A stretch of 64,000 bases of DNA, from positions 366,420,001 to 366,484,000 of the forward strand of contig OZ024740.1 of assembly GCA_964016885.1 (NCBI GenBank). The letters are read 5' to 3'. The notes beneath the pieces were generated by a model that was given only the letters and a program-made list of their open reading frames with translations, did not search any database and had not been told where the DNA came from. The position numbers were made by a program, and so were the translations under genes. This document shows positions 8,525-64,000 of this stretch, in pieces. This stretch comes from Eledone cirrhosa. Taxonomy: Eukaryota. Every line of letters starts with the position of its first letter. The stretch's first letter is position 1.

Positions 8525-11500
8525 ACAATGGGCTGGGTGGAGTAGGAATCATGGTAGCAGAAAAGTGGGCAGATAAGATAATAGACGTAAATAGAGTGAA
8601 CGACAGAATAATTAAAATAAGACTTGTCCTCAATAGAACTACTGTGACAATAATATCTGCATATGCACACAATCCGGACTGCCTGGCGTTATAAAAGACA
8701 GATTCTATGAGTCGTTAATGCTCACTACCTCCCAAATAACTGACAGTGACTACATAATTATCGCTGGCGACCTAAATGGTCACGTTGGACAACATTGTGA
8801 TGGCTACGACGGAATCCATGGAGGCTATGGGTTTGGTACTAGAAATGAGGAAGGCTCCAGAATCCTGGAATTCTGTGACGCAAATAACCTAATTATCTGT
8901 AACACTAACTTAAAAAAACGAGACAATCATTTGATCACCTATGGATCAGGGGAACACACCAGCCAGATAGATTATATCCTTATCAGAAGACGTGACAGAG
9001 TGTCTGTTGTAAACACTAAATCCCTGCCCCATGAAGAATGCACCTCTCAACATAGACTCATAATTAGCGACCTCATAGTCAGGATGAGACGTACTAGACA
9101 ACAGAGGAGGACTATCCTCAGGAGAAAAATATGGAAGCTAAAGGACTCCACAGCCAGTAATAAATTTAAAAGCATATTACTTGATGCTTTTGATAGTAAG
9201 GAAGAGCAATTAGAGTCGTACAATATAGAGGAACAGCGGGAATTCCTGAAAGCTAACCTGCTGAAGGCGACAGATGAAATCTGTGGCTGGAGCAGACCTA
9301 TAGGCAGGAAGAGAGTAACTTGGTGGTGAAACAGTAAGGTGGAGGAGTCAATCAAGGCCAAAAAGCAGGCTTGGAAAGCATGGCGGGATGGGGGAGGTAG
9401 AGAAGACTATCAAGTGGCCAGGAGGGAAGCTAGGAAACAAGTGTACTTCGCAAGAAGGGAAGCAGAGGAAAGAAAGTTCAAGCATGTTCTACAACGCGAG
9501 GACCAAAAACGTGAGGTGTTCAGGATTGCTAGGCAATGTGTCAAGGAAAACCGTGATATTGTCGGGGAGAAGTGTGTCCTTAATGATGATGGTGTACTTG
9601 CCATCACTGATGCTGATAAGAAGGTAGCTTCGAAGTTTCACTATGAAAGGCTACTAAATGAGGAGAATAAATGGGAGAAAGACAGTCTCCCCCCACATCG
9701 ATCCAATAGAGGGACCAGCAGTGCAAGTTGAAGGTAGTATAATAAGTAAGGCGATCAAAGATATGAAGACAGGCAAGGCGGCTGGGCCTTCAGAAATAGT
9801 TGCTGAAATGCTGAAAGCATCTGGAACGGTGGGACACACTATGGTCACCCGGATAGTAAACCAAGTCATACAGAATGGGGTTGTTCTGAAGGACTGGCGT
9901 AGCAGCATCATCATTAACTGCTACAAGGTTAAAGGAGATGCCCTAGATAGGGGAAACTATATAGGCATTAAATTAATTGACCAGGTCATGAAGGTCACAG
10001 AAAAAGTAATAGTGCAACTAATCAGAGAGCGAATTGATCTAGATGAAATGCAGTTCGGGTTTGTGTCAGGTAAAAGTACCACAGATGCTCTTTTCATTGT
10101 ACGACAACTACAAGAGAAGTACCTAGCTAAAAGTAAGCCCCTATAGTTAGCTTTTGTTGACTTGGAGAAAGCTTTTGACAGAGTCCCCCGCTCAATTATC
10201 TGGTGGGCTCTTAGAAAACTAGGTGTTGATGAATGGCTTGTGAGAGCTATACAAGCCATGTATAAAGAAACAGTCAGCAATGTTAGAATTAACAACGAAT
10301 ATAGTGAAGAGTTTAGCGTAAAAGTTGGTGTTCATCAGGGCTCCATCCTTAACCTCCTCCTATTTATTATTGCCCTTCAGGCTATAACAGAGAAGTTCAA
10401 GACCGGCTGCCCATGGGAGCTCCTATACGCAAATGATCTAACGCTCATAGCTGAATCAATGGCTGAACTAGAGAAGAAATTCCAAACATGGAAGCATGGC
10501 CTAGAATCAAAAGGCCTTAAAATTAACCTGTCTAAGACTAAAGTTCTAGTTTGTAGGAAGGAAAATAGGGCACTGGTCCCATCTGGGAAATGGCCATGCT
10601 CAGTGTGTAGGAAAGGAGTAGGCAGAAACTCCATTTTATGTCCCAAATGCAAAGTATGGGTGCATAAAAGATGTAGTGGGATCACAGGTAAGCTAACTAA
10701 GAATATAGATTTTATATGTGGCCGGTGCTCAGGTGCAATAAGTAGCAGCAAATGCCCACAGAATACTAGCTCATTCCATTGCACAGATGGTTCTATAGAA
10801 ATAGTGGACACCTCCCATTACCTGGGTGACAAAATCAGTAGTGGTGGAGGGTGCTCTGAAAGTACAGTAGCTAGAATCAGAACGGGATGGAAAAAGTTCA
10901 GAGAGCTTATACCACTTTTGGCCGCTAAAGGGTTCTCTCGAAAAATGAAAGGCAGGCTGTATGATGCCTGCATACGAACAGCAATGTTACATGGGCTTTG
11001 TGTGCAGAGAATATACGCAGACTGGAGAGGAATGAAGCTTGCATGCTCCGTTGGATGTGTAATAGTAATATACATGAACGGCAAAGCATAAATGAACTAA
11101 GGGAGAAATTAGGAATAAGAGGGATCAGATGTTATTTACTTAAGAGAAGACTATGTTGGTATGGTCACGTGATGCGCATGAAAGATGACAGCTGTATAAA
11201 AAAGCGAAGGGCGATCAAAATAGACGGTAGTCACGGAGTAGGCAAACCCAGAAACACCTGGGACGACTTGATAAATTCCGACATCACACACTTACACCTC
11301 TCCAAGACAATGTCACTGGACCGAGATCTTTGGCGCTACACAGTAATACAGAAGACCCGCCTTGCCTAAGTATAAAGCAAAACCTACAGTCAGTAGGCAC
11401 CTCTTAACAAAAATACACCCCCGTTCCACAACCCCCACCCGATCCACACCACCCTGTAAAGTTATGTTGGTACCACAACATCTAGTCCGAAATAAAGGAG

Positions 11501-20002: not shown

Positions 20003-22100
20003 CACCGTGTAACATATTTTTTGTTCCCCGGTTCTAAGTGTCATTTCATGGTTTGTTATATCCCACTATTATAAAAAACACACAATTATTTAATCAGAAG
20101 TTTGGGTTTGTGATCAGGAGTTTGATATTTCGAAATTTTCATATTTTTCAAGAAAAAACACATTTTTTTTAAATTTATCAGTTCATATAATTAAATCAAC
20201 AGAGTATATATCTATTTTATTACACAAGCTTATCAAAAGCAAACAAGTAAAAACAAATAACACTTATAAAGCAACTTATACACATCAAAAATTACAGGAT
20301 TTCCTGGATTTGCGGTTGTAGTCCAGGTCGCATTCCCGCACTAGCCCCCAGATATAGTCTCCCATCATTTTTTCATTGTAGTGGCCCTGGTACCTCCGCT
20401 CTATCTCTTTCACATCTTGGTGGAATCGTTCGCCTTGTTCTTCTGAGTAGGCGCCCATATTGTCCTTGAATTTTCCAGGTGGGCGTCCAGCATATGGAGT
20501 TTAAGCGACATCCTACATCCCATGGTGCCAAAAGCCTTTATCAGATCCTGCACCAGTTGCTGGTAGTTTTCAGCTCTGTAGTTGCCCAGGAAGCCCTTAA
20601 CAACTGCCTTGAAACAGTTCCATGCTGTTCTCTCAATCCTATTGAGCTTATTGGAGAACTCGGTAGACTCAAATACCTTCTTTATCTGAGGTCCAACAAA
20701 AATTCCAGCTTTGAATTTGGCCTCAGATAACTTGAGGAAGAACTCAAGGAGGTACTTAAAAGCGGCTGATTCTTGGTTGAGAACCTTCACAAACTGCTTC
20801 ATCAACCCCAACTTAATGTGCAGTGGCGGCATGAGCACAATCCTGGGATCAACCAGTGGCTCCCACATGACGTTCCGGGTCCCAAATACAAATTCTGTTC
20901 GCTGCTCCCAGTTCTTTCTTTTGTAGTGGTCAGAGGTGGCTCGGCTGTCCCAAAGGCAGAGGAAGCATTGGAATTTGATAAAGCCTCCTTGGAGTTGAAG
21001 CAGGAAAGCCACCATCTTGAAGTCTCCAATGATTTCCCAATTGTACTGGTTGTATTGTAGAGCTTCCAAGAGGACTTTCACACTGTAGTAATCTTCCTTC
21101 AGACAGACTGAATGAGCTAGGGGAAGTGTCGGGAACTTGTTTCCATTGTGGAGGAAGACAGCCTTCAAACTTGTGGTGGAGCTGTCTATAAATAGCCGCC
21201 ACTCCTTGGGCACAAATGGCACCCCAATAACGTCAAATAGTCCAGACACGTCATGGCAGAAGCAGAGGCCATCCCTAAGAGTGTAAAAGGTTTGCGTCGA
21301 CTTCTCTGACTTGTCACCTGCACTTCCTCCTTGACCAAGTTCCACTGCTTCATCCTGGAGACGAATAGCTCTGCATTGGACTTGGTCAGACCCATATCCC
21401 CGACCAAGTCATTGACTTCTTTTTGGTTTGGGAAGTGAGGAACTTTTTCTGGTACCCCAGGCAGGTAATCCAAGTCCTCAGCATCCATCTCCTCCTCTTC
21501 ATCAGAATACTTGTCTTGGAAAATAAATTTGATATACAATACAAAATAAATATTGGAAAGGGAAATACATATTTAAATAATATAAAAGAACACTAATCAT
21601 ACTAATGAAAATTCGTGCTTAAAACACAACTTACCCTTTATTCAGGGTGCAAAAATCCAGTATCAATAAATCTCTTTAATCCACTTTTTAACAATTTTAT
21701 ACTTTATTGTACTTTTATAATTTTCTTTAGGTATTACTCTTTATTTTATCATTTTAATTTAACCGGAAACATATATAAAAAAATCATTTAACATAAACAT
21801 ATATAAAAAAAATCATTTAACATAAGCAAATTAAACTTACATACAACGTTAAATCCAGCATACAAATCATTCTAGTGAATAGCTTAGAATTTTTACAAAC
21901 CCAAACTTTTACCTGTTTAATAGCACTTTTTTTTAAATTTGGGGCCTAAGCAACACAAAAAAAGTGATTACAAGCCAGGAAAAGAGAAAAAAAAATTTTT
22001 TGTTACAAGAACTCCAGTTCAGATTATAATCTGAACTGGATCTGGAAAAACTGTTGTATGCTTCTACATTTTTGATGGAGTTCTTTTACTTTTAGTAAAT
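20003..22100 (-). mobile_element. Decayed CMC/Chapaev3-like DNA transposon with frameshifted transposase
   Basis: ORFs 21186..21539 and 20410..21345 have WRLFIDSS..SLKAVFLHNGN, GDFK, CFLCLWDSRA, PPLHIKLGLMKQFVK and MSLKLH. Terminus CACCGTGTAAC at 20003. Family assigned from recalled motifs. Confidence 0.75.
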
Positions 22101-29191: not shown

Positions 29192-29250
29192 GCTGGTATG
29201 TTTATTTTGGTGATAACCATTATTCAACAGCTATGACCTCATCAGACAGC
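29192..29250 (-). ncRNA. Decayed hammerhead ribozyme motif
   Basis: Minus strand: GCTGT-CTGATGA-GGT c ATAGCT..GGTTAT c ACC-AAAA(GAAA mutated)-TAAACA-TA-CCAGC. Confidence 0.6.
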
Positions 29251-29280
29251 TAGAACTTGAACAGAAAAAACAGAAAAACA

Positions 29281-29465
29281 TAATTGTCTCTACTTTAGGT
29301 ACAAGGCCAGCAATTACCCAGTGCATTACTGGTACTTTATTTTATCGACCCCGTAAGGATGAAAGGCAAAGTCAACCTCAGCGGGATTTGAACTCAGATC
29401 GTAAAGGGACGTAACTATGCTGGAAAGCATGGCGTCCGACCCTCTACTGATACTGCCAATCCACC
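29281..29465 (-). mobile_element. tRNA-derived SINE family A inserted in the left arm
   Basis: Reverse complement of 48952-49137. Confidence 0.9.
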
Positions 29466-29648: not shown

Positions 29649-29798
29649 ACCACTTCTTTGAGAAAACAAGACCATACTTCAGGACTGGCCACATCAAAGA
29701 TCAAAATAACAGAGGTAAACTTTGTTCCATCATTATGTTTTTCTGTTTTTTTCTGTTCAAGTTCTAGCTATCTGATGAGGTCATAGCTGTTGAATAAT

Positions 29799-30145
29799 GT
29801 GCGTGAACGACCCAGCATAAATGTGTTGAGAGAGAAACTGTGTTTGAGAGGGATAGAATGTAGTGTACGGGAGAGGAGACTGAGGTGGTATGGACATGTG
29901 ATGCGCATGGAGGATAACCGATGGGTGAAGAAGTGCCAGGAAATGCCAGTTGAAGGAAGACGTGGTAGAGGTAGACCACGAAAAACATGGGCGGAGGTGG
30001 TGAGAACAGACCTCAGATCATTGAAGCTAACGGTGGAGATGACGAAGGACTGTGACGAGTAGAGAGATGCTGTGCTGAATAAGACCCGTCCCACCCTTGC
30101 AAGCAGGGAAAAGCGGATGTAAAATGATGATGATGATGATGATGA
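29799..30145 (+). mobile_element. RTE LINE 3' fragment
   Basis: RRLRWYGHVMRMED..GRGRPRKTW and a (GAT)n tail. Confidence 0.9.
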
Positions 30146-30155
30146 TATATATATG

Positions 30156-30213
<58 letters not shown>

Positions 30214-30229
30214 CATATATATATATATT

Positions 30230-30260
<31 letters not shown>

Positions 30261-30332
30261 AAGGACGTAAAATAAGAAAATATTTTTTAAAAAAAATTTA
30301 AAAAAAATTTTTTTTTACTTACTTAAATTTTC

Positions 30333-30414
30333 ACTCCAACTAATTAGTTTCTGCAATGGGATAAAGACAGTTACGTAATCCAACTGTCGAGAATTCATTG
30401 CGTCATCAGGGAGT
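30333..30414 (-). ncRNA. Hammerhead ribozyme motif (array left arm, copy 1)
   Basis: Reverse complement of 32558-32639. Confidence 0.8.
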
Positions 30415-30891
30415 CTATTCTCAGTTAAGTCTCCAGGCAATGCGCGGACACTGGCGGCTCATATAAAAATAATAATAATTCGGTAGATCGAACAGCTTGC
30501 GAGGACTGGATTCTATGTGCCGAAATTCTCACTGCTTCAAGTCAAATGGCCGATTCTAAAGAATCAATCACGTGACACAGAGGCTAGTTAGAAGGAATGG
30601 GATGGTAAGATGACTGACGCCTACTAACACCACAAAAAAATTTTTTTTAGAAGTGGTTTTGACAAGTTTGCTCGACAAATCAGTGATTTGGAGATAAATA
30701 TAGATAATTTAATATATCAACTAACATAAGCGCACAGATGCACGCCCATGCCAGCAAATACACAGGTTATGTCATAGTACCTAGGTGGTTCAATGCAGGA
30801 GAATGCAGAACAATAATATAAAGGACGTAAAATAAGAAAATATTTTTTTAAAAAAATTTTTAAAAAATTTTTTTTACTTACTTAAATTTTC

Positions 30892-30973
30892 ACTCCAACT
30901 AATTAGTTTCTGCAATGGGATAAAGACAGTTACGTAATCCAACTATCGAGAATTCATTGCGTCATCAGGGAGT
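30892..30973 (-). ncRNA. Hammerhead ribozyme motif (array left arm, copy 2)
   Basis: Same motif, with one substitution in the distal stem II. Confidence 0.8.
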
Positions 30974-31451
30974 CTATTCTCAGTTAAGTCTCCAGGCAAT
31001 GCGCGGACACTGGCGGCTCATATAAAAATAATAATAATTCGGTAGATCGAACAGCTTGCGAGGACTGGATTCTATGTGCCGAAATTCTCACTGCTTCAAG
31101 TCAAATGGCCGATTCTAAAGAATCAATCACGTGACACAGAGGCTAGTTAGAAGGAATGGGATGGTAAGATGACTGACGCCTACTAACACCACAAAAAATT
31201 TTTTTTTAGAAGTGGTTTTGACAAGTTTGCTCGACAAATCAGTGATTTGGAGATAAATATAGATAATTTAATATATCAACTAACATAAGCGCACAGATGC
31301 ACGCCCATGCCAGCAAATACACAGGTTATGTCATAGTACCTAGGTGGTTCAATGCAGGAGAATGCAGAACAATAATATAAAGGACGTAAAATAAGAAAAT
31401 ATTTTTTTAAAAAAATTTTTAAAAAAATTTTTTTTACTTACTTAAATTTTC

Positions 31452-31533
31452 ACTCCAACTAATTAGTTTCTGCAATGGGATAAAGACAGTTACGTAATCC
31501 AACTGTCGAGAATTCATTGCGTCATCAGGGAGT
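31452..31533 (-). ncRNA. Hammerhead ribozyme motif (array left arm, copy 3)
   Basis: Reverse complement of 32558-32639. Confidence 0.8.
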
Positions 31534-32021
31534 CTATTCTCAGTTAAGTCTCCAGGCAATGCGCGGACACTGGCGGCTCATATAAAAATAATAATAATTC
31601 GGTAGATCGAACAGCTTGCGAGGACTGGATTCTATGTGCCGAAATTCTCACTGCTTCAAGTCAAATGGCCGATTCTAAAGAATCAATCACGTGACACAGA
31701 GGCTAGTTAGAAGGAATGGGATGGTAAGATGACTGACGCCTACTAACACCACAAAAAAATTTTTTTTAGAAGTGGTTTTGACAAGTTTGCTCGACAGATC
31801 AGTGATTTGGAGATAAATATAGATAATTTAATATATCAACTAACATAAGCGCACAGATGCACGCCCATGCCAGCAAATACACAGGTTATGTCATAGTACC
31901 TAGGTGGTTCAATGCAGGAGAATGCAGAACAATAATATAAAGGACGTAAAATAAGAAAATATTTTTTAAAAATTTTTTTTTAAAAAAAAAATTTTTTTTT
32001 TTTAAAAATTTTTTTTTTTTT

Positions 32022-32064
<43 letters not shown>

Positions 32065-32557
32065 TTAAAAAAAAAAATTTAAGTAAGTAAAATTAAAAAA
32101 AAATTTTTAAAAAATTTTTTTTAAAAAACATTTTCTTATTTTACGTCCTTTATATTATTGTTCTGCATTCTCCTGCATTGAACCACCTAGGTACTATGAC
32201 ATAACCTGTGTATTTGCTGGCATGGGCGTGCATCTGTGCGCTTATGTTAGTTGATATATTAAATTATCTATATTTATCTCCAAATCACTGATTTGTCGAG
32301 CAAACTTGTCAAAACCACTTCTAAAAAAAAATTTTTTTGTGGTGTTAGTAGGCGTCAGTCATCTTACCATCCCATTCCTTCTAACTAGCCTCTGTGTCAC
32401 GTGATTGATTCTTTAGAATCGGCCATTTGACTTGAAGCAGTGAGAATTTCGGCACATAGAATCCAGTCCTCGCAAGCTGTTCGATCTACCGAATTATTAT
32501 TATTTTTATATGAGCCGCCAGTGTCCGCGCATTGCCTGGAGACTTAACTGAGAATAG

Positions 32558-32639
32558 ACTCCCTGATGACGCAATGAATTCTCGACAGTTGGATTACGTA
32601 ACTGTCTTTATCCCATTGCAGAAACTAATTAGTTGGAGT
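32558..32639 (+). ncRNA. Hammerhead ribozyme motif (array right arm, copy 1)
   Basis: ACTCC-CTGATGA-c GCAATG...GACAGTT ggattacgt AACTGTC...CATTGC a-GAAA-CTAATTAG-TT-GGAGT. Confidence 0.8.
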
Positions 32640-33117
32640 GAAAATTTAAGTAAGTAAAAAAAAATTTTTTAAAAATTTTTTTTAAAAAATATTTTCTTAT
32701 TTTACGTCCTTTATATTATTGTTCTGCATTCTCCTGCATTGAACCACCTAGGTACTATGACATAACCTGTGTATTTGCTGGCATGGGCGTGCATCTGTGC
32801 GCTTATGTTAGTTGATATATTAAATTATCTATATTTATCTCCAAATCACTGATTTGTCGAGCAAACTTGTCAAAACCACTTCTAAAAAAAATTTTTTTGT
32901 GGTGTTAGTAGGCGTCAGTCATCTTACCATCCCATTCCTTCTAACTAGCCTCTGTGTCACGTGATTGATTCTTTAGAATCGGCCATTTGACTTGAAGCAG
33001 TGAGAATTTCGGCACATAGAATCCAGTCCTCGCAAGCTGTTCGATCTACCGAATTATTATTATTTTTATATGAGCCGCCAGTGTCCGCGCATTGCCTGGA
33101 GACTTAACTGAGAATAG

Positions 33118-33199
33118 ACTCCCTGATGACGCAATGAATTCTCGACAGTTGGATTACGTAACTGTCTTTATCCCATTGCAGAAACTAATTAGTTGGAGT
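33118..33199 (+). ncRNA. Hammerhead ribozyme motif (array right arm, copy 2)
   Basis: Identical to 32558-32639. Confidence 0.8.
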
Positions 33200-33684
33200 G
33201 AAAATTTAAGTAAGTAAAAAAAAAAAAAAAATTTTTTTTAAATTTTTTTAAAAAAATATTTTCTTATTTTACGTCCTTTATATTATTGTTCTGCATTCTC
33301 CTGCATTGAACCACCTAGGTACTATGACATAACCTGTGTATTTGCTGGCATGGGCGTGCATCTGTGCGCTTATGTTAGTTGATATATTAAATTATCTATA
33401 TTTATCTCCAAATCACTGATTTGTCGAGCAAACTTGTCAAAACCACTTCTAAAAAAAATTTTTTTGTGGTGTTAGTAGGCGTCAGTCATCTTACCATCCC
33501 ATTCCTTCTAACTAGCCTCTGTGTCACGTGATTGATTCTTTAGAATCGGCCATTTGACTTGAAGCAGTGAGAATTTCGGCACATAGAATCCAGTCCTCGC
33601 AAGCTGTTCGATCTACCGAATTATTATTATTTTTATATGAGCCGCCAGTGTCCGCGCATTGCCTGGAGACTTAACTGAGAATAG

Positions 33685-33766
33685 ACTCCCTGATGACGCA
33701 ATGAATTCTCGACAGTTGGATTACGTAACTGTCTTTATCCCATTGCAGAAACTAATTAGTTGGAGT
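33685..33766 (+). ncRNA. Hammerhead ribozyme motif (array right arm, copy 3)
   Basis: Identical to 32558-32639. Confidence 0.8.
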
Positions 33767-33954
33767 GAAAATTTAAGTAAGTAAAAAAAAATTTTTAAAA
33801 AATTTTTTTTAAAAATTATTTTCTTATTTTACGTCCTTTATATTATTGTTCTGCATTCTCCTGCATTGAACCACCTAGGTACTATGACATAACCTGTGTA
33901 TTTGCTGGCATGGGCGTGCATCTGTGCGCTTATGTTAGTTGATATATTAAATTA

Positions 33955-34004
<50 letters not shown>

Positions 34005-36952: not shown

Positions 36953-36956
<4 letters not shown>

Positions 36957-39900
36957 CCAGAGGCCTATACTATCGCTTGCCTGGTTGCCTTTCGATATAT
37001 GATGGATGGATGGACTGCGGAATCCTGGAGAGTGGAGGAGAGAGAGAGAAAAATCTGGACGCTCAAGCGACAATGCCAAAGATAAAGACAAATTCACCTC
37101 TTGGACGAGAATGCGAGCACTCATTGTTTCGACCGCGGACGGCTAACATAACCCCATCGCCCTCCGCCCCCCACCGCCCCCAACCCCCAAACGCAATCCA
37201 AAACTTCAGAGTTGGTACCATAAATGTAGGCACCCTAAAGGGTCGCGCTAACGAGGTTGTAGAAATGCTTGAACGTAAGGAGGTCGATGTTTGTTGTATT
37301 CAAGAGACCAGGTGGAGGGGTGGGTCTGCTAGGTTCATTGAGGGTAAAAAACGATGTTATAAGCTTTTCTGGGTGGGAAACGACGATGGGCTGGGTGGAG
37401 TAGGAATCATGGTAGCAGAAAAGTGGGCAGATAAGATAATAGACGTAAATAGAGTGAACGACAGAATAATTAAAATACAACTTGTCCGCAATAGAACTAC
37501 GGTGACAGTAATATCTGCATACGCACCCCAATCCGGGCTGCCCGGCACTATAAAAGACAGATTCTATGAGACACTGATGCTAACTACCTCCCAAATATCC
37601 GACAGTGACTATATAATTATCGCAGGCGACCTAAATGGTCACGTTGGACAACATTGTGACGGCTACGACGAAATCCATGGAGGCTATGGGTTTGGTACTA
37701 GAAATGAGGAAGGCTCCAGAATCCTGGAATTCTGTGATGCAAATAACCTAACTATCTGTAACACTAACTTCAAAAAACGTGACAATCACCTGATCACCTA
37801 TAGATCCGGGGAACACACAAGCCAGGTAGATTATATCCTTACCAGAAGACGTGACAGAGTGTCTGTTGTAAACACTAAATCCCTCCCCCATGAAGAATGC
37901 ACCTCCCAACATAGACTGATAATTAGCGACCTCATAGTCAGGACGAGACGTACTCGACAGCAGAAGAGGACTATCCTCAGGAGAAAAATATGAAAGCTAA
38001 AGGACCCCACAGCCAGGAATAAATTTCAAAGCATATTACTTGATGCTTTCAACAGTAAGGAAGAACATTTAGAGTCGGACAATATAGAGGGAGAGTGGGA
38101 ATTTCTGAAAGCAAACCTGCTGTTGGCGACAGACGAAGTCTGTGGCTGGAGCAGGCCTGTAGGCAGGAGGAGAGTAACATGGTGGTGGAACAGTAAGGTG
38201 GAGGGGTCAATTAAGGCCAAAAAGCAGGCTTGGAAAGTATGGCGGGATGGGGGAAGTAGAGAAGACTATCAAGTGGCCAGGAGGGAAGCTAGGAGACAAG
38301 TGTACTTAGCAAGAAGGGAAGCTGAGGAAAGAAAGTTCAAGCATGTTCTACAACGCGATGACCAAAAACGTGAGGTGTTCAGGATTGCTAGGCAATGCGT
38401 CAAGGAAAACCGTGATATTGTCAGGGAGAAGTGTGTACTAAACGACGATGGCACACTTGCCATCACCGACGCTGATAAGAAGGTAGCTTGGAAGTGTCAC
38501 TATGAAAGGCTACTAAATGAGGAGAATAAATGGGAGAAAGACAGTCTCCCCCATATCGACCCAATAGAGGGACCAGCAGTGTTAGTCGAGGGGAGTATAA
38601 TAAGTAAGGCAATCAAGGATATGAAGACGGGTAAGGCGGCTGGGCCTTCGGAAATAGTTGCTGAGATGCTGAAGGCATCTGGCACGGTGGGACACACCAT
38701 GGTCACCCGCATAGTTAACCAAGTCGTACAGAATGGGGTTGTTCCGAAGGACTGGCATAGCAGCATCATCGTTAACTGTTATAAGGGTAAAGGAGACGCC
38801 CTAGATAGGAGTAACAATAGAGGCATTAAATTAATCGACCAGGTCATGAAGGTCACGGAAAAAGTAATAGCGCAACTAATCAGAGAGAGAATTGACCTAG
38901 ATGAAATGCAGTTCGGGTTTGTGTCAGGCAAAAGTACCACAGACGCTCTTTTCATAGTACGACAACTACAGGAGAAGTACCTAGCTAAAGGTAAACCCCT
39001 CTACTTAGCTTTTCTCGACTTGGAGAAAGCCTTCGACAGAGTCCCCCGCTCCATTATCTGGTGGGCTCTTAGAAAACTAGGCGTTGACGAATGGCTTGTG
39101 AGGGCTATACAAGCCATGTATAAAGAAACAGTCAGCAAGGTTAGAATTAACAACGAATATAGTGAAGAGTTTAGCGTAAAAGTTGGCGTCCATCAGGGCT
39201 CTGTTCTCAGCCCACTACTATTTATTATTGCCCTTCAGGCTATAACAGAGGAGTTCAAGACAGGCTGCCCATGGGAACTCCTATACGCAGACGACCTGAC
39301 ACTCATAGCGGAATCAATGGCCGAGCTAGAGAAGAAATTCCAAACATGGAAGCACGGCCTAGAGTCAAAAGGACTTAAAATTAACCTGGCTAAGACCAAA
39401 GTACTAGTTTGTAGGAAAGAAAACAAGGCGGCGGTCCCTTCTGGGAAATGGTCGTGCTCGGTGTGTAGGAAAGGCGTAGGTAGAAACTCCATTTTATGTC
39501 CTAAATGCAAAGTATGGGTGCATAAAAGATGTAGTGGGATCACAGGTAAGCTAACTAAGAACATAGATTTTACATGTGGCCGGTGCTCTGGTGCAATAAG
39601 TAGCAGCAAGTGCCCACAAAATACTAGCTCTTTCAATTGCGCAGAGGGTTCTATAGAAATAGTGGACAGCTTCCGTTACCTGGGCGATAAAATCAGCAGT
39701 GGGGGAGGGTGCTCTGAAAGTACTGTAGCTAGAGTCAGAACTGGTTGGAAAAAGTTCAGAGAGCTTATACCACTATTAGCTGCTAAAGGGTTCTCACTAA
39801 AAATGAAAGGCAGGTTGTACGATGCCTGCATACGAACAGCAATGCTGCATGGCAGTGAGACCTGGGCATTGTGTGCAGAGGATATACGCAGACTAGAGAG

Positions 39901-40638
39901 GAACGAAGCTTGCATGCTCCGCTGGATGTGTAACAGTAATATACGTGAACGGCAAAGCATAAACGAACTAAGGAAAAAATTAGAGATAAGAGGGATCAGA
40001 TGTTGTTTACTCGAGAGAAGGCTACGTTGGTATGGACACGTGATGCGCATGAAAGTCGATAGCTGTATAACAAAGTGCAGGGCAATAAAGATAGACGGTA
40101 GTCACGGAATAGGCAGACCTAGAAAAACCTGGGACGAGCTGATAAACTCCGACATCACACACTTACACCTCTCCAAGACAATGTCACTGGACCGAGACCT
40201 TTGGCGGTACTCAGTAATAGAGAAGACCCGCCTTACCTAAATATATAGTAAAACCTACTCCAGCCAGTAGGCATCTCTAACAAAATACACCCCGTCCCAC
40301 CACCACCACCCCCACCTCATTCACACCACCCCGTTCTATGTAAAGTTATGTTGGTGCCGCGCCATCCAGGCCGAAACAAATGAGATCGTGTAGGTGTCAC
40401 GACAAAAAAACACACAGTCCACACTGTAATGTGGCCGTGTAGGCAACACGGTAAAAACCTCCCAGACCCACACTGTAAATGTGGTTGGTGTTAGGAAGGG
40501 CATCCAACTGTAGAAAACCTGCCAGACAGTCCTATGCGAGCAAGACAATCACTCTTGCCTCAAGTGGGACTACCCCCGTCCAAACCCATGCAAGCGTGGA
40601 ACACGGACGTTAAACGTTGATGATGATGATGATGATGA
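36953..40638 (+). mobile_element. Near full-length RTE-clade LINE
   Basis: EN ORF 36977..37993 and RT ORF 38123..40240 lie in one frame, separated by a single TGA. 3'UTR and (GAT)n tail present. Confidence 0.96.
37072..40240 (+). pseudogene. RTE ORF: AP endonuclease, reverse transcriptase and PHD-like zinc finger, with one premature stop at 37991
   Basis: GTINVGTL, CIQETRW, GDLNGHVG, SQH; QFGF, DLEKAFD, HQGSVLSP, YADD, YLG; C-x2-C...C-x2-C-x3-VH-x2-C...C-x2-C. Confidence 0.92.
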
Positions 40639-43022: not shown

Positions 43023-43991
43023 CTAAATTTTTTCCATAAACAATACAACCACATTAGATAACTTAGGAGGAAATTTATTGTGCCTTTTTTTGATAATGTT
43101 GTCACTAATTTCATCCCAATTTTCAGCACCACTTTTTACCAGACAAGTATAATGGCCTGCCATAGATGATGCTCCTTCATGAAGAATAGCAGCTTTTAAT
43201 GTGAAATTTGTGCCATATATTTGCTGCTTTTTTGAGCTAAAGTTCATAATATCACAATTAATTCTTTCTTCTTCACTATTAATAAAAAATCTACTAATTG
43301 AGATGACAAGATATTTGAAATCGTTAGTAAATTCAATTCTTGAAGTTATTTGATGCTCAGTATTTTCAGAACAAGTATCACGGTATTTAGTCAAAGTATT
43401 TGTTGTTGAAAGTAGAGATTTAAATTGTTGTGTGCCATTAATAGGATTTAATATCAAATCCTCTTTTATTTGAAATGGAAGTTCAGATTCTATACCACAT
43501 CCAGGTCTTGAATTACAATTGCAAACATTGTTATTTAAAGCTTAGCAGTTTGTTTGATGCAATCGGATGCATCTAGTATGATCAGTTTGAATAAATTGAA
43601 GTTTTTCTCTTAATACCAAGTCCAAATGTAGAGAGAGTTCTTTCCAAAATTCATGAGCACATTGCTGATTTCCATCATGAAATCTTTCTCCAATTATTCT
43701 TCTTAAGTTAGAGACATTATTATGATTATTAAAAATTATATTGCTTAATTCTTGATGTACTCCATTCATGTTGTTAAAATTATGCAAATACTCTACAAAT
43801 TCAGGCAACTGATTCAGTGATTGCACAACTGAATTTGCAAAACAAGCATTTCTTTGGTTGATCAATTGATGTTTAGGGATTAAAGTTTGGCTGTTTTCAT
43901 TTCTTTTCTTCTTTTTGGCAGGTTGGTTTGAATTTTCTTCCAAATTAAGTCTTTTAGTTCTTTTCTTGGGCATGCAAGAAGCATTTGCCAT
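43023..43991 (-). pseudogene. USP/peptidase C19-like deubiquitinase domain, in frame with upstream helicase
   Basis: Cys box NQRNACFANSVVQSL, QQCAHEF, His box ILHEGASSMAGHYTCLV..W...SD. One internal stop at 43542. Confidence 0.75.
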
Positions 43992-45080
43992 TCAAGGATG
44001 CTTTTTCCTGCAAGGTGGCAATGGAGGCAAATCTGCTCTTCCAGTACTAGCCCGTAGTTTGTTGTTCTCTTCCCATGCAGATTTGTCAACCATGATCAAT
44101 GATCTTGGATCAAAGTCATAGAGATACACATTGCAAAGTTTTCTGGCTCTTGAAAGAGCCACATAAGCTTGACCATCAGAAAATATCTGATTTCCTAAAT
44201 CAGCAATTATTCCATCCACAGAAATTCCTTGTGATTTGTGAATTGTTATAGAGTAAGCAAGAGACAATGGAAATTGTGTTCTGGTGACAAAAACACCAGC
44301 AGAAATTTCATAGTCTGCTTGAACTCTTCTAATAGAAATAGGTTTGTCCTTTTTGGTATCAAAAGACGCCAAAATTTTGTCAACATTGCTTCCATTCCCA
44401 ATTAATTCAATAACTGTTCCAATAACACCATTGCATAAGCCTTGATCTACATCAATGTTTCGTTTCAACATCACTCTTGCTCCAATTCCAACATTTAGCA
44501 AAGTTTCTAGTCCAGCAGTATCAAAAGTTTTCTTGGTTTTGCCTTTTTCAACATTTTTCTTTTTTCTTCCATTTACTTGTCTCATACCAGAATCTTTTGC
44601 AGCAAGTTTCACTGCATTTATGTTGCATTTTTTAATCATTTCATTATTCAACTCATCAACAGCTTCATTCAAAGGTAAAATGCATACAAATTTTAATTCA
44701 GGAATAGAATACAATTCAATCAATTTTTTTAGCAATTTCTTCAACAGGAAATAGGCATCTTTTTTGAAAAATGCTAATATCAGAGTCTGATAGGGAACCA
44801 ATCCTAATTCTTCCCAAAATATCAACATAGTTGTCTTTGTCTTCTATTTGTCTCATATTAATGGTTAGCTCATCATATTGAAAGTATTTCCACAATGAAT
44901 TTCCACTAATGCCAATGTCTGTTCTTTTGGCATCATATGATGAAATTCTCGAAAGTACTGGTTTTTCATTTACAGGTGGCAATTGCATCAAATCACCAAA
45001 CAAAAGAAGATTCATTTTTCCAAAAGGATATGCCATTTTTGGGGGATCTCCAAAAATTTCATCAAGCCTTTTGTGAATAA
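43992..45080 (-). pseudogene. PIF1-family helicase C-terminal half (Helitron/Helentron RepHel remnant)
   Basis: PFGKMNLLLFGDLMQLPPV, LTINMRQ, GARVMLKRNID..GLCNG, QFPLSLAYSITIHKSQG, GQAYVALSRA. One frameshift near 44760. Confidence 0.9.
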
Positions 45081-45084
45081 CTAT

Positions 45085-45545
45085 AATTAAGGGAAACTAC
45101 TTAGTACAGCTACGATGGATTTATACTAGAGTTATGTCCCTTAGCGTTACTCTTCATCTGATTTCGTCACTTAAAGTCACACAACTCGATTTCTATGGCA
45201 CCAATCTTTTCAATATTGACAAATTTCGATTCAGCTTATCGAGTTGTATCTAGTGAGAGAGGTAGCATGACATTATATTCGAAATTTAAAAAGTTATGAT
45301 GAGTCAAAGTCAATGAGGGGCCTTATCCTCCAGTACTTGACCACACATATTTTAGCGTAACTTTTTTTCTACTGACCTAAATTTCAATTCCATTATACCA
45401 AAATGTAGCCTGGGATGAGTCCATTCTAGTGCAACAAACCTGATCAAATTTGGTTGAGAACTGAATTAGTGAAAAGTCCTAGAAGTGGCTGTCGTTGGGA
45501 AAAAGTTGACCTTAAGAATATTATTCACACACTATCGTGTGTGAA

Positions 45546-50914: not shown

Positions 50915-51408
50915 CAGATGTCTGGCATAAAGCTCCGACATCTGGCATAAAGTTCCGATATCTGGCATAAAGGTCCGATATCTGGCATAAAGCTCCGACA
51001 TCTCGCATAAAATTCCTATATCTGGCATAAAGCTCCGACAACTGGCATAAAGTTCCGATATCTGGCACAAAACTCCGATATCTGGCATAAAGTTCCGATA
51101 TCTGGCACAAAACTCCGATATCTGGCATAAAGTTCCGACATCAGGCATAAAGTCCTGATATCTGGCATAAAGCTCTGACAACTGGCATAAAGTTCCGATA
51201 TCTGGCATAAAGTTCTGACGTCTGGCACAAAGTTCTGATATCTGGCATAAAGCCCTGACATCTGGCATAAAGCTCTGACATTTGGCATAAAGTTCCCATA
51301 TCTGGCATAAAGCTCCGACATCTCGCATAAAGTTCCAATATCTGGCATAAAGCTCCGATATCTAGCATAAAGCTCTGATATCTGGCATAAATCTCCGACG
51401 TCTGGCAA
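50915..51408. repeat. 20-bp minisatellite (TCTGGCATAAAGTTCCGATA)n, ~24 units
   Basis: Directly visible contiguous units with no spacers. Confidence 0.96.
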
Positions 51409-61772: not shown

Positions 61773-61820
<48 letters not shown>

Positions 61821-62021
61821 ATTAGAGTTAAAACTCAATTGGAACCCTGTAACTATTAAGCTCAAAGTATAAATACTGAGCCGATTAATAATATATAGTA
61901 AGAAACACAGTAAACCGTGTGTCTAAAATTACAAGGGTTGAAAAACCACATTTGTTTGAAATTTTTAACCAAGAAGCAGACAGAATGATAAAATATACAA
62001 ACCGCCTCAATAACCATTATA

Positions 62022-62101
62022 TCTCTCGGACAGATTATCCCTAATCTGTTTCGCCCTGAGTGTGTTTGTAACAGATAATCCTGGGCTTCATCAGCGAGAG
62101 A
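62022..62101 (-). ncRNA. Type I hammerhead ribozyme motif, GUC site
   Basis: TCTCTCG-CTGATGA-a-GCCC..GGGC-GAAA-CAGATTA ggga TAATCTG-TC-CGAGAGA. All three stems pair perfectly. Confidence 0.9.
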
Positions 62102-62402
62102 ATCTGATTAAATGCCACAAACACTATTTGCCAACGTTCACACAGAAAGATGAATTTGTCACCTCGTGCGCCGCTAGTCAAACGTGGTAAGCGTGTATTG
62201 AATAGAAATAACAGTCCAACACACACAACTTAATAAGCTCAACTTGTGAGGGAGCAGAAATATATATGAAAATTAGAGTTAAAACTCAATTGGAACCCTG
62301 TAACTATTAAGCTCAAAGTATAAATACTGAGCCGATTAATAATATATAGTAAGAAACACAGTAAACACGTTGGCAAATAGTGTTTGTGGCATTTAATCAG
62401 AT

Positions 62403-62482
62403 TCTCTCGCTGATGAAGCCCAGGATTATCTGTTACAAACACACTCAGGGCGAAACAGATTAGGGATAAGCTGTCCGAGAGA
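62403..62482 (+). ncRNA. Type I hammerhead ribozyme motif, GUC site (one stem III mismatch)
   Basis: Mirror of 62022-62101. Confidence 0.87.
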
Positions 62483-62603
62483 TATAATGGTTATTGAGGC
62501 GGTTTGTATATTTTATCATTCTGTCTGCTTCTTGGTTAAATATTTCAAACAAATGTGGTTTTTCAACCCTTGTAATTTTAGACACACGGTTTACTGTGTT
62601 TCT

Positions 62604-62665
<62 letters not shown>

Positions 62666-62732: not shown

Positions 62733-62752
62733 AACAAAAATTTTATTATTAT

Positions 62753-62810
<58 letters not shown>

Positions 62811-62814
<4 letters not shown>

Positions 62815-64000
62815 CATCATCAATCAGGCTATATATGGTGGTGTCATACCCAAAGCCTGGTGCAGCAGTATTCTCATAAATTGCTACAAAGGTAAAGGGG
62901 ATGCTTTGGAGAGGAGCAGTTATAGGGGTATAAAACTGATAGATCAGGTTATGAAAGTGGCAGAAAGGATTTTAGCACAACTAATTAGAGAAAGGGTCAA
63001 ACTAGATGAGATGCAGTTTGATTTTGTGCCTGGGAAGAGTACAACAGATGCCCTCTTCTTGGTGAGACAAATGCAAGAGAGGTTCTTAGAGAAGAATAAG
63101 CCACTATACTTAGCCTTTGTTGACCTAGAGAAGGCCTTTGATAGGGTACCCCGATCTGTCATCTGGTGGTCCCTAAGGAAGCTAGGTGTTGAGGAATGGC
63201 TTGTGAGGACAGTGCAAACTTTGTACAGAGGTACTCTCAGTAAAGTCAGGGTAGGAATGGAGTTTAGTGAGGAATTCCAGATACAAGTAGGAGTACATCA
63301 GGGTTCGGTCCTCAGCCCGCTCTTGTTCATTATAGTCCTCCAAGCCATAACAGAGGAGTTTAAGACTGGCTGTCCATGGGAACTTCTCTATGCTGACGAT
63401 CTGGCTCTTATAGCAGAATCAGTAGAGGAGCTAGAGAATAAATTCCGGCTATGGAAACAGCAGTTGGAAGCAAGAGGACTGAGAGTAAATCTAGCTAAGA
63501 CAAAAGTGTTGATGAGTAGAAAAGAGGACAAAACCCTGATTCCGTCAGGGAAATGGCCATGTTCGATATGCAGAAAAGGAACTGGCATAAATTCTATAAA
63601 ATGCACACAATGCAGGTCCTGGGTACACAAGAGATGTAGCGGGATAGCAGGCAAACTAACAGGTAGGGAGAAATATGTATGCAGTAGATGTACAGGGAAA
63701 TTAGACAGTAGAAGTCACACTGATAGACACATTTTTCAAATGCAAGAGGGCGCTATAGAAGTGGTGGATAGCTTCCGGTACCTAGGAGTCAGATTAGCAT
63801 GGGAGGAGGGTGTTCCGAGGCCATAGTATCTAGAATAAGGACGGGTTGGAAGAAGTTTAGGGAGCTGCTTCCTCTCTTGACGAAGAAGGGTTTCTCCCTG
63901 CGTACGAAAGGCCGGTTGTATGATGCCTGTGTGAAGAGCGCGATGCTGCATGGTAGTGAGACATGGGCAGCAACCGCAGAGGATATGCGACGGCTGGAGA
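62811..64000 (+). mobile_element. 5'-truncated RTE LINE, different subfamily, running off the window
   Basis: ORF 62906..63826 has DLEKAFD, HQGSVLSP, YADD and a PHD-like finger. Frameshift near 63790. Confidence 0.93.

Follow-up and report, generated by a model that had tools for sequence, protein, structure and literature searches.

Non-LTR retrozymes consist of tandem non-coding units with type I hammerheads, and their circles have been described in coral, mussel and axolotl (Cervera and de la Peña, 2020, PMC7229834). More recently, retrozymes of 51-972 bp were proposed to be non-autonomous derivatives of Penelope-like elements (PLEs), and one of nine Xenopus retrozyme dimers was cleaved in vitro (Li et al., bioRxiv 2026.07.22.740005). 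The coral and mussel motifs are cleaved as monomers, and the monomer of the axolotl motif HHR_Amex2 reached 22% cleavage in 1 h, its dimer performing much better (PMC7229834). Most invertebrate type I motifs have been reported to cleave as monomers (PMC7761336). Newt and PLE hammerheads function as dimers (PMC4209133, PMC6155905, PMC6765202), and the same 10-bp dimer stem as at the present locus was described for Aedes repeats (PMC3088659).

PLE hammerheads conserve a base lying between positions 9 and 10.1, a short palindromic helix III is the norm among animal type I motifs, and Schistosoma PLE remnants carry hammerhead pairs on opposite strands (PMC4209133). An extra A before GAAA occurs in one of the 56 motifs aligned in the PDF text of the same study, that of a Cotesia bracovirus PLE judging by row order. 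Stem II tolerates a U·U at its base, and pseudoknots joining stems I and II were found in about 40% of the hammerheads surveyed (Perreault et al., 2011, PMC3088659). PLE insertions are marked by partial tandem arrays, by inverted copies truncated at the 5' end and by (TA)n as the target (PMC8557442), and the anole PLE cuts AT-rich DNA and begins reverse transcription within its own RNA (PMC11167929). The passages of PMC13282606 do not mention ribozymes. Both the element class and the idea of a dimer are already in print. In the literature consulted we found no C·A at the position discussed below, no report of this family and no pseudoknotted animal retrozyme hammerhead, and supplements or subscription papers may hold such a variant.

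Descriptor scanning of the window (the whole stretch of DNA analyzed, 64,000 nucleotides) revealed a type I hammerhead at 32558-32639 on the plus strand, with a predicted cut after 32634 (Table 1). The motif combines the CUGANGA and GAAA core and an NUH triplet with three helices and an open helix I, as type I motifs do; the triplet is GUU, the position of the cut being a prediction. Stem I, CUGAUGA, GAAA and GUU were all found where the original prediction had placed them, and so was the two-tiered stem II, in which a 7x7 internal loop separates IIa from IIb. In the isolated motif, pair probabilities are 0.97-1.0 for stems I, IIa and IIb and just 0.11 for stem III. The two bases that had been described as a core-proximal C·A mismatch are present as well. 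The G10.1-C11.1 pair does not lie directly beside A9 and G12, since C32570 and A32620 intervene, and the apparent mismatch is better read as a Penelope-type extra base after A9 together with a rarer extra A before G12. The palindromic stem III, initially regarded as unusual, is a textbook feature common in animal type I motifs, and the chance of a palindromic loop is 0.07.

Table 1. Features of the 560-bp-unit insertion and of its hammerhead (window coordinates; all cuts are predicted)
Feature	Position	Strand	Remarks
Left-flank (TA)n	30145..30260		
Whole insertion	30253..33965		Pair of head-to-head arms built from a ~560-bp unit; GC about 0.36
Left arm	30253..32000	-	blastn and alignment
Hammerhead copy	30333..30414	-	Cut after 30338
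Hammerhead copy	30892..30973	-	Single C>T, giving U·G in stem IIb; cut after 30897
Hammerhead copy	31452..31533	-	Cut after 31457
Palindrome centre	32001..32073		Irregular A and T runs, about 70 nt
Right arm	32074..33965	+	Alignment
16-bp hairpin	32217..32252	+	Folding; 7 G·U pairs, once per unit
Candidate decoy	32530..32541	+	32530-35 and 32538-41 repeat 3' strands of stems IIa and I
5' side of stem I extension and internal loop 1	32542..32557	+	32542-47 pairs with 32646-51
Candidate 6-bp pseudoknot	32550..32583	+	32550-55 (loop 1) with 32578-83 (stem II internal loop)
Stem I	32558-62 / 32635-39	+	5 bp
CUGAUGA core	32563-69	+	
C32570	32570	+	Extra base between A9 and first G-C pair of stem II
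Stem IIa	32571-76 / 32614-19	+	6 bp
Stem IIb	32584-90 / 32600-06	+	7 bp
A32620	32620	+	Extra base between stem II and G12
GAA	32621-23	+	
Palindromic stem III	32624-33	+	Monomer: 3 bp and 4-nt loop; dimer: 10-bp duplex
Hammerhead copy	33118..33199	+	Cut after 33194
Hammerhead copy	33685..33766	+	Cut after 33761
Right-flank (TA)n	33942..34001		

The type I descriptor, which tolerates a single unpaired base to either side of stem II, had eight matches in the window, six in the 560-bp-unit family and two in a second family, and none in 40 dinucleotide shuffles scanned on both strands. Rfam gave no match at gathering score in the whole window, for hammerheads or any other family, and at E<=10 the region 32000-33300 yielded no hammerhead and two irrelevant matches only. 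As Rfam misses such motifs, hammerhead counts obtained for animal genomes from model-based screens may be too low. The second family (61809-62613) carries type I cores at 62410 (+) and 62094 (-) with a GUC triplet and one extra A after A9; its stem III has 8 bp in the minus copy and is disrupted in the plus copy. It is arranged as inverted arms between (TA)n runs and includes an exact 107-bp duplication (61809-61915 = 62260-62366). In a further inverted pair around (TA)n, at 29218-29284 and 29732-29799, GUC and a stem-I-like helix come immediately after CUGAUGA and GAAA is absent from the vicinity; this may be a hammerhead with an internal deletion.

The motif belongs to a repeated 560-bp unit, as the original prediction held, and the array proved to consist of two inverted arms instead of a single tandem run. 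Counted from the predicted cut, the left arm comprises unit positions 22-560, full units of 560 and 559 nt and then positions 1-85, while the right arm comprises positions 7-560, full units of 560 and 567 nt and then positions 1-204. The four full units are over 98% identical. Each arm holds three hammerhead-bearing copies, where a non-LTR retrozyme is defined by two or more consecutive tandem units, each with a type I hammerhead, and in five of the six copies the 82-nt motif is identical; in the sixth, a single C>T turns one stem IIb pair into U·G. The unit is non-coding, its longest stop-free stretch being 53 aa, and its GC content of 0.36 is below 50%. The tandem units with one hammerhead each, the low GC content and the lack of any longer stop-free stretch match the definition of a retrozyme (PMC7229834; bioRxiv 2026.07.22.740005). 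The window contains one locus of this family. A fold-back assembly artefact is unlikely, as each arm has substitutions, A/T run lengths, a 3' end and flanks of its own.

The architecture of the insertion also points to PLEs, as an inverted 5'-truncated copy, partial tandems and a (TA)n target are PLE traits; the microsatellite target is accompanied by unequal 3' ends. The 3' ends of both arms continue into (TA)n, and a target duplication cannot be told because the ends of the insertion merge with these runs. The 3' ends differ by 119 nt, which exceeds the PLE tail of 30-40 bp described in the relevant passage of PMC8557442. The central A/T block is self-complementary. No ORF for a PLE reverse transcriptase or GIY-YIG endonuclease is present in the insertion, no ORF adjoins either arm, and no PLE protein was detected among the nine window ORFs scanned. 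On the ribozyme strand an exact Pol III A or B box is absent and several T runs occur; no tRNA was found in the window.

The window as a whole is animal DNA in which microsatellites and remnants of LINE and Helitron-like elements abound, and its repeats seem to resemble those of octopuses. LINE copies on the plus strand lie at 36956-40240 (endonuclease, reverse transcriptase and PHD-like matches), 62735-63826 (reverse transcriptase and PHD-like matches) and 8637-11369 (similar to the other copies by eye). Helitron-like broken ORFs with matches to Pif1 helicase and ubiquitin hydrolase occupy 43023-45096 (-), and a 332-aa ORF without a Pfam match lies at 20410-21408 (-), which we take to resemble a transposase remnant. 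A long 4/8-bp microsatellite (602-2246) and a 20-bp minisatellite of 24 copies (50917-51407) were also observed.

Relatives of the family were sought in sequencing runs. Words of the stretch occur in 20 of the 24 runs listed, and 11 runs from eight coded organisms contain 26-76% of them. The RNA-recorded row (X18-X20), the sole RNA row among the 24 listed runs, contains 0.04 of the words. The alignment took in contigs of four runs (X6, X9, X11 and X13) and left out X18-X20 and eight of the nine small-share rows; contig depths were not taken as copy number. The full 82-nt motif is identical in record 5 of X13, and record 6 of X6 and record 2 of X11 are identical across the parts of the motif that they cover, A32620 being unchanged in the latter and in the X13 record. 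Record 7 of X9 joins a unit end to a unit start, going back 544 + 9 letters; this relative, about 90% alike, is therefore tandem as well, and its period is similar. Record 5 of X13 starts at 32558 and is preceded by unrelated sequence, indicating that not all copies begin at the cut. Pattern scans for relatives returned none in prokaryotic genomes and none in viral contigs; the single metagenome-contig locus that they gave lacks the hammerhead stems and was taken as a chance match.

Seven of the eight changed places listed in 32542-32651 fall in stem IIb or its loop, and the eighth creates a G·U in the stem I extension. The clustering in distal stem II has a rough P of 0.001 over 60 places judged visible, in pieces that are few, related and uneven in cover. 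Differences within about 30 nt of a piece end seem to be unlisted, so that in the diverged X9 pieces much of the core escapes view. Pairing in stem IIb is lost through the changes at 32604 and 32606, barring partner changes at unlisted places, and such a partner change was seen for 32606 only, in the loose end of X9 record 11, to which it was assigned from depth sums. This loose end is diverged in its 5' half and keeps the core end, the extra C, the next G and five of the six pseudoknot bases; it differs at two places in stem IIa, the partners of which lie outside the visible part.

Folding suggests further structure around the motif, which the original prediction did not include. The stem I extension is weak, with a probability of 0.24-0.37 in the isolated motif and 0 in longer contexts. 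A candidate pseudoknot, chosen by eye, would form between the 5' strands of the stem I and stem II internal loops through six Watson-Crick pairs (duplex energy -5.3 kcal/mol; chance 0.021 when the loop letters are shuffled), and its strand polarity would suit parallel stems I and II. No covariation was seen among the aligned relatives, the most diverged piece keeping five of the six stem II bases. A transcript that ends at 32580 reaches its lowest energy (-11.5 kcal/mol) by folding through the candidate decoy; in the predicted folds the decoy yields once stem II is made and reappears in the lowest-energy circle. The chance of both decoy copies is 0.0002-0.0004, in a test devised after the copies were noticed. 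The 16-bp hairpin is stable on the ribozyme strand only (-21.3 vs. -3.3 kcal/mol), and as the 3' end of the right arm lies 26 nt past its copy there, it could serve the copying enzyme as a recognition site. The circular unit folds with a z of -4.5 against 60 shuffles. A bolder model, which we hold to be rather unlikely, would be that extra bases offset by the pseudoknot and an upstream decoy acting as an off-switch, both during transcription and in the circle, make up a hammerhead subtype invisible to Rfam, with the 5' ends of the arms tracing a cut-RNA template copied by Penelope-like enzymes.

The original prediction further held that the palindrome permits a double hammerhead, that cleavage may need two adjacent units and that this would make the tandem arrangement functional. 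The first point agrees with our analysis, as a double hammerhead sharing a 10-bp stem III can be drawn with standard pairs alone, and such dimers are in print for newt and PLE motifs. Dimeric variants of PLE hammerheads were reportedly also described by Lünse et al. in 2017. A strict need for two units would mean that one unit stays uncut and that only adjacent units sharing stem III are cleaved, which we consider improbable. It would be in line with stem III being unfavorable as a hairpin (+1.5 kcal/mol) and stable as an intermolecular duplex (-9.0 kcal/mol), with the palindromic loop (chance 0.07) and with the dimeric action of the newt and PLE motifs. In a two-unit transcript, two active monomers cost 9.5 kcal/mol and the double hammerhead 5.9, i.e., 3.6 kcal/mol less in cis, and the bimolecular double hammerhead reaches -45.8 kcal/mol vs. 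-43.2 for two inactive monomers. However, the two-strand cofold minimum (-52.8) is an inactive duplex, and a single active fold of the isolated or downstream copy is cheaper than the dimer, even before any pseudoknot energy. In the isolated motif the lowest-energy fold is inactive, the core being paired with the 3' strand of stem III, and forcing the active structure costs 3.0 kcal/mol; one active monomer in the two-unit transcript costs 3.2 kcal/mol in the downstream copy and 6.5 in the upstream copy, and the active fold in the circle 5.6. All these costs exclude pseudoknot and core energies, and the predicted probability of stem I falls to 0.01-0.02 in longer contexts. The dimer thus appears useful when both sites must cut and is not the cheapest route to one site. 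HHR_Amex2, the closest case with an assay, is still cut as a monomer, as are the coral and mussel motifs (PMC7229834). Help from a neighboring unit therefore stays plausible, while the folding costs, which overlap, do not support a strict requirement. Nor does the tandem layout depend on the dimer, since two successive cuts release a unit and rolling-circle copying gives tandems anyway.

It is equally improbable, in our view, that the ribozyme is dead or nearly so, with the extra A before G12 disabling the core and the family spreading as a PLE passenger regardless. G10.1-C11.1 is the most conserved pair of stem II (passages of PMC3088659 and PMC4209133), the motif at its lowest energy adopts an inactive fold, the anole PLE inserts in vitro without hammerhead cleavage (PMC11167929) and eight of nine Xenopus dimers remained uncut (bioRxiv 2026.07.22.740005). 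Yet the changes in the relatives spare the visible core and the proximal stems, the most diverged piece retains the extra C, and active motifs tolerate a U·U in the corresponding place (PMC7229834; PMC3088659). We find it very improbable that the unit represents a terminal repeat from an autonomous PLE, amplified on the spot as DNA, through A/T fold-back and unequal crossing-over and with no circular RNA. Retrozymes do resemble such repeats, and local tandem expansion has been proposed (passages of bioRxiv 2026.07.22.740005); the self-complementary A/T block and the extra base after A9, a PLE trait (PMC4209133), would be accommodated as well. Against it stand the tandem relative, the absence of an ORF adjoining either arm and the start of both arms shortly after the predicted cut.

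We thus believe that the 560-bp unit is rather probably an animal non-LTR retrozyme, a young PLE passenger that is cut once per unit, passes through a circle and is copied into (TA)n. Such a non-coding passenger would have entered (TA)n recently, in the form of two inverted tandem arms. A read-through transcript would fold one type I hammerhead per unit and cut after GUU, freeing monomers of ~560 nt that a host ligase may circularize, and a PLE reverse transcriptase may copy the circles into new tandem or inverted insertions. Two features probably slow the monomer, namely the apparent C·A at the foot of stem II and a competing helix that pairs the core with stem III. The 6-bp pseudoknot of the stem I and stem II internal loops would provide a tertiary contact, and through the palindromic stem III adjacent units may raise the rate as a double hammerhead, which would not be strictly required. 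The arms start 7 and 22 nt after the predicted cut, which hints that cut RNA was the template, although this is one locus and the A/T block alone could fix the junction. In print, the one reconstituted PLE inserted without hammerhead cleavage, and most of the Xenopus retrozymes assayed were uncut. The present element is young and small, with separable features (C·A, pseudoknot, palindrome and decoy), and these can therefore be tested in one transcription set.

Compared with the described systems, the candidate pseudoknot differs from that of Perreault et al., which according to the relevant passages was tested on a metagenomic type II motif, in being predicted between internal loops of an animal type I motif. 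HHR_Amex2 shares with our motif a mismatch at the base of helix II, a short helix III with a tetraloop and the tandem repeat; however, it has a U·U in contrast to the C·A here, its helix III is given as 2 bp, a count that may or may not include A15.1-U16.1, and its main text describes no pseudoknot (PMC7229834), whereas a candidate is present here. As far as the cited passages describe them, PLE hammerheads have in common with the locus the base between 9 and 10.1, a long helix II, a 5-bp helix I, a palindromic helix III and pairs on opposite strands. Most of them lack helix III, while here it comprises 3 bp and a loop, loop 1 is defined and no reverse transcriptase-endonuclease ORF adjoins. 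The closest likeness is to animal non-LTR retrozymes, with which the locus shares tandem non-coding units, one type I hammerhead in each, low GC content and a predicted self-paired circle. Its 560 bp exceed the 150-450 bp first described (PMC7229834) and lie inside the 51-972 bp given in the text of the 2026 survey, and it is set apart by the long two-tiered stem II and the inverted double arm, the circles being predicted in its case.
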